From IMG/VR virus record IMGVR_UViG_2529292904_000023: a DNA stretch of 27,930 nt; one strand, written 5' to 3'. The stretch's first letter is position 1, and each line of letters opens with the position of its first letter. Both the position numbers and the translations under genes were made by a program. Origin of the DNA: a virus. Its lineage: Duplodnaviria > Heunggongvirae > Uroviricota > Caudoviricetes. The notes under the pieces were generated by a model. It saw only the letters and a list, made by a program, of their open reading frames with translations. It did no database searches and was not told where the DNA came from. Positions 2,493-3,414 of the stretch are shown here, piece by piece.

Positions 2493-2519
2493 AAAACCCG
2501 CCTTCAGGCGGGTTTTTTC
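2493..2519. terminator. Bidirectional rho-independent terminator between convergent genes
   Basis: AAAA-CCCGCC-ttca-GGCGGG-TTTTTT; A-run on the left and T-run on the right serve both strands. Confidence 0.75.
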
Positions 2520-2520
2520 T

Positions 2521-2802
2521 TTAGTGATGTTCTTTGTCCTTCTGTTTGACTGTTCTGACCTGTTCCCACTCGATACGTCCTTCTTCTCGCCTTTTGTCTA
2601 TGTATTCCGCAAGATCTTGAATATTGATGCAACGTTTTGCTTTTTGTGATGTGCCGATGCGATATGTTGGAACGGGCAACTTACAAGCGTTTGCTTTTGC
2701 TTCTGCCGTGGCTGGACTCATACCAAAGTACTTTTGGCTAACTGCTGAGAGTTCAATGTTTGGGGTATTGAATTCAGCCATCAGTAAAAACAAGGTGTTC
2801 AT
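2521..2802 (-). CDS. PrtN-family (pyocin-activator-like) DNA-binding protein, possible excisionase-like function
   Basis: Pattern ...YFGMSPATAEAKANACKLPVPTYRIGTSQKAKRCINIQDLAEYIDKRRE recalled as PrtN-like; start chosen at ATG 2802 (MNTLFLL) with GGAGAAA Shine-Dalgarno; the track ORF extends to 2829. Confidence 0.55.
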   Translation of the reverse strand: MNTLFLLMAEFNTPNIELSAVSQKYFGMSPATAEAKANACKLPVPTYRIGTSQKAKRCINIQDLAEYIDKRREEGRIEWEQVRTVKQKDKEHH

Positions 2803-2838
2803 AATTTTCTCCATCAAAACCGGCTGCACCCGGGAAAA

Positions 2839-3414
2839 TCATAATTCTGTGCTGGTGGCAGGAATTAATTTCTGCCAGATAGCGGAAACATATTTTGCCT
2901 GATGACGGGCATCAGCCAGGGCGTTGTGCCGTTCGCCATCGAAAGGCATGTCCATTTTGGGGTCGAATCCGATGGAACGCCCAAGCGTAACGATCGTGCG
3001 TACATCGTGGTCATTCCAGTACGCCCACGGGCAGATTTGTCCTGCTCGCTCGTAAGCTCCACGTAAAATTACGTTGTCGAAGGTGGCCCCGTTACCCCAG
3101 ACTTTTAAATATTTCGTATTGTCTGCGTGCCGGTTAATGAAATGGTTTAGTTCTGAGAGAGCATCGCTGATCGACAAAGTATCATCAATACAGATTGCAG
3201 CTCGCGCTTCAGGGCTTTGTTTCAACCACCACAGGATGGTATCGCCGTCAGGTGTAGCTCCTTGCTTCATAGCACTGTCTAGGCTGACAACCGCATAGAA
3301 TTCTTGTCCGATGTCTCCGGTTTCTGGAGTGAAGAACACCGCGCCAATGGAAACGATCGGTGCATCCTTATTTTTCCCCATCGTCTCAAGGTCGATCATT
3401 AAGTTGTTCATCAC
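2839..3414 (-). CDS. DnaQ-like DEDDh 3'-5' exonuclease
   Basis: Exo I motif MIDLETMG, Exo II WGNGATFDNVIL, Exo III H-NALADARH; start overlaps the upstream stop (ATGA). Confidence 0.75.
   Translation of the reverse strand: MMNNLMIDLETMGKNKDAPIVSIGAVFFTPETGDIGQEFYAVVSLDSAMKQGATPDGDTILWWLKQSPEARAAICIDDTLSISDALSELNHFINRHADNTKYLKVWGNGATFDNVILRGAYERAGQICPWAYWNDHDVRTIVTLGRSIGFDPKMDMPFDGERHNALADARHQAKYVSAIWQKLIPATSTEL

Follow-up and report, generated by a model that had tools for sequence, protein, structure and literature searches.

Where is the integrase of a lambdoid prophage whose leftward early operon ends without one? The question is raised by a stretch of 27,930 nucleotides (IMG/VR record IMGVR_UViG_2529292904_000023, Caudoviricetes), here called the window, for which it had been proposed that the integration module lies elsewhere or has been lost. 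The features of the window are collected in Table 1. It is very probable that the window consists of a chromosomal flank followed by ~26.5 kb from the left end of a lambdoid, mEp460-like prophage inserted in the 5' end of dusA, the host gene for tRNA-dihydrouridine synthase.

Table 1. Features of the window discussed in the text, in order of position.
Feature	Position	Strand	Evidence or remark
Host gene yjbL/yjbM, DUF2713 protein, 318 aa	1..957	+	PF10897, E = 2e-141
Displaced original 5' end of host dusA, 35 codons, 104 bases	1319..1422	+	Identical to K-12 dusA
attL core ATGCTCGA, crossover region	1415..1422		Four-way attL/attP/attR/attB alignment
Two GGGARCC motifs, 11 bp apart	1466..1483	+	Candidate arm-type integrase binding sites
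orf178, phage cargo gene	1567..2103	+	PHROG 4350, unknown function, E = 2e-103
orf57, phage cargo gene	2300..2473	+	PHROG 2741, unknown function, E = 8e-36
Hairpin terminator between convergent cargo genes and leftward operon	2492..2517		Folding and consensus scan
rdfN-like gene, putative PrtN-domain directionality factor (excisionase), 93 aa	2521..2802	-	PF11112, PHROG 1300
DEDDh 3'-5' exonuclease (Rv2179c-like), 190 aa	2839..3411	-	PF16473, E = 1e-75; PHROG 255 'exonuclease'
DUF551 protein	3411..4202	-	PF04448, E = 6e-22
Remaining tightly packed leftward early operon: Ead/Ea22 (two), YfdR-like HD protein, DUF2303, YfdP-like	4199..8822	-	
CI-type repressor, HTH and S24 peptidase	9359..10051	-	PF00717, PF01381
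+1 base insertion splitting terminase gpA into 24893-26437 and 26439-26822	26431	+	Gap versus four intact relatives
+1 base insertion frameshifting the portal gene (start 27009)	27140..27141	+	Gap versus four intact relatives

The prophage boundary in dusA

The left end of the window is bacterial, and the gene order of this flank (zur, the DUF2713 gene, dusA) is the same in O157:H7 493/89 and in K-12. Only codons 1–35 of dusA are present; they run into phage DNA and the reading frame stops at 1438–1440. The counterpart of this fragment in 493/89 is annotated as 'tRNA-dihydrouridine synthase, missing C-terminus'. In the window the fragment stays in frame across the junction for five extra codons (RMYRF), giving a 40-codon ORF (1319–1440) behind the original dusA promoter; one related assembly (L006) has this ORF annotated as a gene of 40 aa.

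Four sites were aligned, namely the junction in the window, the corresponding region of the free phage mEp460, the far junction in 493/89 and the empty site of K-12, and they form a classical attL/attP/attR/attB set. The window is of host type up to the octamer ATGCTCGA and from position 1423 onwards is identical to the right arm of the mEp460 attP. The far junction in 493/89 is the reciprocal one, in which the phage-borne copy of the dusA 5' end, ~85–90% identical to the host version, is joined at the same octamer to the remainder of dusA. Because the alignment switches at this point, the left boundary of the prophage is placed within the window, at 1422/1423, and software that cuts prophages out at gene boundaries will thus include host DNA. 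The octamer contains the core reported for phage 1720a-02, the latter as read from the attB sequence quoted in PMC6328086. Thus, the junction falls in the conserved 5' region of dusA and leaves the original 5' fragment at one end, as in prophages with a DusA-associated integrase (DAI), and the replacement 5' end is present at the int-side junction in the mEp460 attP, in the 493/89 attR and in the 24 attR loci described below. The motif GGGARCC has four matches in the whole window, two of them close to the core (Table 1), and three further copies occur in the int-side arm of the mEp460 attP (L010, 5930–5975). The repeats, clustered on both arms of attP, are candidate arm-type binding sites for Int.

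The original prediction, that no tyrosine or serine recombinase occupies the usual lambdoid int/xis position, was borne out, and it extends to the window as a whole. Pfam scans of essentially all window ORFs longer than about 100 aa, and of several shorter ones, returned no Phage_integrase, Resolvase, Recombinase or rve domain, and no transposase domain was found in the substantial ORFs scanned across the 27.9-kb window. A hidden integrase remnant in the window was also considered and rejected, since tblastn searches of the window with three dusA-type integrases yielded nothing better than E = 1.1. Several ORFs (4199–4735, 6118–6729, 21088–21645 and orf178) have no family assignment, and one of them might conceivably encode an unrecognised recombinase or transposase that integrates the phage. 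However, the attL junction is exactly the target of the dusA integrases, no ORF scanned contains a recombinase domain, and the relatives carry a conventional tyrosine integrase beside attR; the att structure effectively refutes such an enzyme, which we consider extremely unlikely.

Genes at the end of the leftward operon

The last two leftward genes encode, as originally described, a DEDDh exonuclease and a PrtN-like protein. The exonuclease ORF (2839–3414, minus strand) matches positions 1–177 of the 177 in the PF16473 profile, and its translation contains the DEDDh motifs (DxE, D and H-x4-D): MIDLET (DLE), WGNGATFDN (FDN) and HNALADARH (HNALAD). Translation probably begins at ATG 3411, overlapping the stop codon of the upstream DUF551 gene (ATGA). 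A segment of 464 bases further upstream (3837–4300), comprising the part encoding the DUF551 N-terminus and the end of the next ORF, is 100% identical to phage P7 (upf89.5/upf89.0), an identity that points to a recent mosaic exchange with a P1-type plasmid prophage. Three contigs (L005, L007 and L008), retrieved by exact match to the DUF551 protein, are 100% identical to the window over positions 1–14202, and L005 ends near window position 23.4 kb.

The PrtN-like ORF (2521–2829, minus strand) matches PF11112 (PrtN) with E = 4e-23 and 81.7 bits, against a cut-off of 24.2, over profile positions 1–73 of 74. Family membership was taken to be a score above the Pfam gathering score in a small (~75–100 aa) protein, and the 93-aa product falls within this range. 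This length corresponds to a start at ATG 2802, which is preceded by a GGAG Shine-Dalgarno sequence and is the start annotated by RefSeq in a relative; the alternative start, GTG 2829, would give 102 aa and is less likely. In PHROG the protein belongs to family 1300, 'excisionase' (E = 8e-40), and its PF11112 homologue in mEp460 is likewise annotated as excisionase in RefSeq.

Homologues of prtN have been linked to dusA elements before. When the DusA-associated integrase family was defined, with mEp460 listed among its members, a prtN homologue was recorded in 64% of the islands and its role was left open (Farrugia 2015; PMC4482086). Subsequently, deletion of the PF11112 gene rdfN was found to abolish excision of the dusA element IMEVchUSA3 (Durand 2021; PMC8409611). 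A minimal dusA element with int alone gave attB and attP solely when rdfN was supplied; RdfN and Int are together sufficient and required for excision, and the two genes lie across attP from each other (PMC8409611). The RdfN tested comes from Vibrio and is only distantly homologous to the protein in the window; identities within the family go down to 29% (PMC8409611). The gene in the window has the same placement: its stop codon is 1.1 kb from the attL core, across attP from int in the free phage. The circular map of mEp460 reads tail fibre, dinI(-), int(-), attP (which contains the dusA 5' copy), gp23(+), gp24(+), the PF11112 'excisionase'(-), exonuclease(-) and DUF551(-), int being gp22, a site-specific integrase gene at 23303–24400 on the minus strand.

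In order to see how general this placement is, loci at the dusA site were collected from IMG/VR, metagenome contigs and GTDB genomes with a degenerate pattern matching all four att types and with the exact 37-mer of attL, and were classed according to whether each flank of the core is of host or phage type. The exact 37-mer was present in 36 proviral contigs of IMG/VR. The degenerate pattern matched 120 loci in the metagenomes; its only matches in the GTDB genomes were an attR in Escherichia sp. MOD1-EC7003 and one unoccupied site. Sixty-four loci were of the attL type, and in all but one of the 57 that have at least 1.9 kb of downstream flank the PrtN-like gene is present in full, 1.1–1.5 kb from the core; in these 56 loci the exonuclease gene nearly always comes next.

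From its family membership and position we infer that the 93-aa protein is a recombination directionality factor. This bears on a premise of the original prediction, in which the PrtN-like protein was placed outside the integration module: the PHROG assignment and the work on RdfN (PMC8409611) instead put one half of that module at this very end of the prophage. As regards annotation, genes labelled 'PrtN-like' in this setting should be named excision factors.

The PF11112 family owes its name to the pyocin activator PrtN, and the protein could accordingly be viewed as a transcriptional activator like that of Pseudomonas, with another factor setting the direction of excision. Some directionality factors of other phages, P2 Cox for example, are also regulators, which counts in favour of an activator, as does the role left open by Farrugia 2015 (PMC4482086). 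Against this stand the dependence of the minimal int-only dusA element on rdfN for the formation of attB and attP (PMC8409611), the presence of the gene beside attL in 56 of 57 loci, its annotation as excisionase in both PHROG and RefSeq, and the finding of no other small Xis-like gene among the window ORFs scanned, which comprise essentially all those above about 100 aa and several shorter ones. A protein acting as an activator in place of a directionality factor is therefore very unlikely. It is somewhat less improbable, though still doubtful, that the directionality factor has a second role as a PrtN-style transcription factor acting on phage or host promoters, such as those of the divergent int/dusA region, because the PrtN domain is shared and directionality factors with dual functions exist in other phages. 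If so, expression of dusA or int would be coupled to induction, over a distance of ~46 kb between rdfN and the int/dusA promoter region in the prophage.

The PrtN-like gene is not part of a lambda-type int-xis cassette; beyond it come a terminator, two convergent ORFs and attL. The terminator had been described as bidirectional, which holds for its fold and only partly for its U-tracts. The hairpin has a GC-rich stem of 10–11 bp and folds on both strands (-19.6 kcal/mol, z = -3.4 on the plus strand; -16.2 kcal/mol, z = -4.2 on the minus strand, relative to shuffled sequences), but the U-tract is good on the plus strand and consists only of UUUU on the minus strand, and the consensus scan reported the plus strand alone. 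The hairpin clearly terminates the two rightward cargo ORFs, and probably also ends the leftward operon, less efficiently.

The two cargo ORFs, orf178 and orf57, correspond to gp23 and gp24 of mEp460 and have no match in Pfam, NCBIfam or PDB sequence searches. Among other attL loci the distance from the core to rdfN is 1121, 1234, 1252 or 1526 bp, and YafM and YafO are among the features annotated in other phages under their match to this region, which may be a variable cargo slot.

Position of the integrase in relatives

In mEp460, which is 98% identical to the window over positions 1316–3656, attP lies between int and the PrtN-like gene; therefore, integration puts the PrtN-like gene at the left end of the prophage and int at the right. 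Integrated relatives display this arrangement. In 493/89 a 372-aa tyrosine recombinase is encoded divergently from the intact dusA, 46.5 kb from attL. The AUSMDU00014361 prophage, whose head genes are of the lambda type as in the window, encodes a 365-aa integrase next to an intact dusA, again divergently, 21.3 kb past gpW. These two E. coli prophages, both complete, are 46.5 and 47.6 kb long. Mapped from these relatives, int should be found near coordinate 48,000, some 20 kb to the right of where the window stops.

The survey loci provide the other half of the picture. A full-length integrase gene is located at -173 to -1267 in all 21 of those attR loci, out of 24, that have at least 1.27 kb of upstream flank. 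Three more loci, typed as attB with Int, are attR sites in which the switch from phage to host sequence lies further left. In three attR sites on metagenome contigs (L078, L123 and L137) part of the phage-borne dusA 5' copy, to the left, is replaced by host-type dusA sequence; recombination or gene conversion may thus have taken place inside the homeologous segment of ~100 bp and not at the 8-bp core only. Two loci are of the attP type: in L096 the core is flanked on one side by int and on the other, where the locus ends, by the beginning of the PrtN-like gene, and in L110 the upstream flank is too short to show int. Of the 26 attL loci whose flank extends for 8 kb or more, only two show int, both of them short remnants with int 8–10.7 kb from attL.

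These remnants (L024 and L054, from IMG/VR) combine attL, rdfN and a full-length int within that distance; evidently, the interior of a prophage can be deleted while both recombination genes survive.

In 5426 complete E. coli genomes the attL junction was found in 336 and the int-dusA junction in 727, counts that are not paired per genome; the phage-side arm of attL varies more than int does. In a megablast search of the window against the same 5426 genomes the best coverages were 76% and 73%.

The late region of the window does contain the frameshifts in A and B that had been noted, each caused by one extra base relative to four intact relatives that are 96.5–97.3% identical. The GpA_nuclease domain is split over two ORFs, and both insertions, in gpA and in the portal gene, adjoin a run of two G residues. 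An exact-protein look-up of the truncated 514-aa gpA returned no record, and one of gpW, a very widespread protein, yielded no locus identical to the window. The insertions could represent pseudogenisation or sequencing errors; in the former case the prophage would be unable to package DNA.

It could thus be argued that the integrase has been lost or inactivated here as well, leaving a locked-in, decaying remnant with attL and an excision gene and no excision. Unless they are sequencing errors, the two frameshifts mark a packaging-defective prophage and hint at decay, which raises the chance of further losses; moreover, the window stops before the far end of the prophage, and degraded remnants such as L024 and L054 do occur at the dusA site. 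Yet even those two remnants keep int, and the gene is full-length and free of frameshifts in the 21 attR loci with sufficient flank and in the three variant attR sites. An int-less left end is normal in intact relatives, including the free phage mEp460, and its occurrence in the window is thus no evidence of loss. For the same reason the frameshifts are uninformative on int, and the connection originally drawn between them and the missing integrase is not sustained. We regard loss of the integrase as unlikely. Extrapolating from the relatives, this prophage in all likelihood still carries int and attR.

The original alternative of a module elsewhere or lost can thus be restated. 'Elsewhere' is supported for the integrase, which the relatives have at the far end, as the proposed alignment to complete prophages brought out, but the window itself contains attL and the excision gene. 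The att sites and int were to be sought immediately outside it; attL is already inside, and int and attR are expected some 20 kb past the right end. In practical terms, an int-less left end of a lambdoid prophage in dusA should not be read as decay, and the integrase should be sought beside dusA, at the other end.

A cluster of tRNA genes (18088–18339) comprises Met(CAT), which is tRNA-Ile in a RefSeq relative, Arg(TCG) and Arg(TCT), and is situated between the antiterminator Q gene (16791–17585) and a SASA/nanS-p esterase gene (18865–20718). The slot between antiterminator Q and the nanS-p esterase is where Stx phages carry stx. In the window, the ~525 bp between the tRNAs and the esterase gene are too short for stxAB.

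The arrangement suggests how integration and excision might proceed. Phages of this type employ a DusA-associated tyrosine integrase, and their attP, which contains the dusA 5' copy, separates int from the excision gene. Opening of the phage circle at this site leaves rdfN ~1.1 kb inside attL and should bring int to attR, at a distance of about 46–48 kb, where it is transcribed away from the reconstituted dusA. The leftward operon would be transcribed from near the cI gene down to position 2521, towards rdfN. As the last gene of this presumably repressor-controlled operon, rdfN would be expressed only upon loss of the repressor, that is, on induction. The leftward transcript could not reach int in the prophage, since int is at the other end, and int would therefore need a promoter of its own, which would have to be located in the ~90-bp gap that separates int from the phage dusA copy. 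In Vibrio the int promoter is constitutive (PMC8409611). Induction would then supply RdfN and turn a constantly available Int towards excision.

Comparison with known dusA elements and phage lambda

The arrangement described above is the published architecture of dusA-specific integrative elements, for which the integrase family, the target site and the directionality factor are all known. The closest counterpart is mEp460 (NC_019716.1 / JQ182728.1), in which the 98% DNA identity noted above for 1316–3656 extends also over window positions 6626–10679. The order of attP, two cargo ORFs, excisionase, exonuclease and DUF551 is identical in the two, and the CI/Cro region is common to both. Unlike the window, mEp460 is a complete free phage with int directly beside attP. 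Both the middle early genes of the window (about 3.7–6.6 kb) and the late region have a mosaic make-up unlike that of mEp460, and the gpA and portal genes are frameshifted in the window.

The DAI elements (PMC4482086) share with the window the insertion in the dusA 5' end, the displaced 5' end at one junction and a prtN homologue in the cargo. There is no difference in kind between them, the integrase expected for the window lying beyond the stretch read. RdfN of IMEVchUSA3 (PMC8409611) is, as in the window, a small PF11112 protein encoded across attP from int, although high sequence divergence between the two is to be expected. However, IMEVchUSA3 is a mobilisable island in which rdfN is driven by AcaCD, an activator from IncC plasmids, whereas rdfN in the window ends a lambdoid leftward early operon and is presumably under the control of the CI repressor.

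Insertion of the lambdoid Stx phage 1720a-02 takes place 100 bp inside dusA, and its excision requires int (Balasubramanian et al. 2019; PMC6328086). This Stx2 phage (KF030445.1) has the same core as the window and covers 41% of window positions 1300–4300 at 97.6% identity. It carries stx2, whereas the window has instead the tRNA cluster and the nanS-p esterase gene, without toxin genes.

Phage lambda, finally, resembles the window type in that a tyrosine integrase is paired with a small DNA-bending directionality factor where the leftward operon ends. In lambda, however, attP does not come between int and xis: the two genes are neighbours, and both end up at the left end of the prophage, whereas in phages of the type found in the window they are separated by attP.
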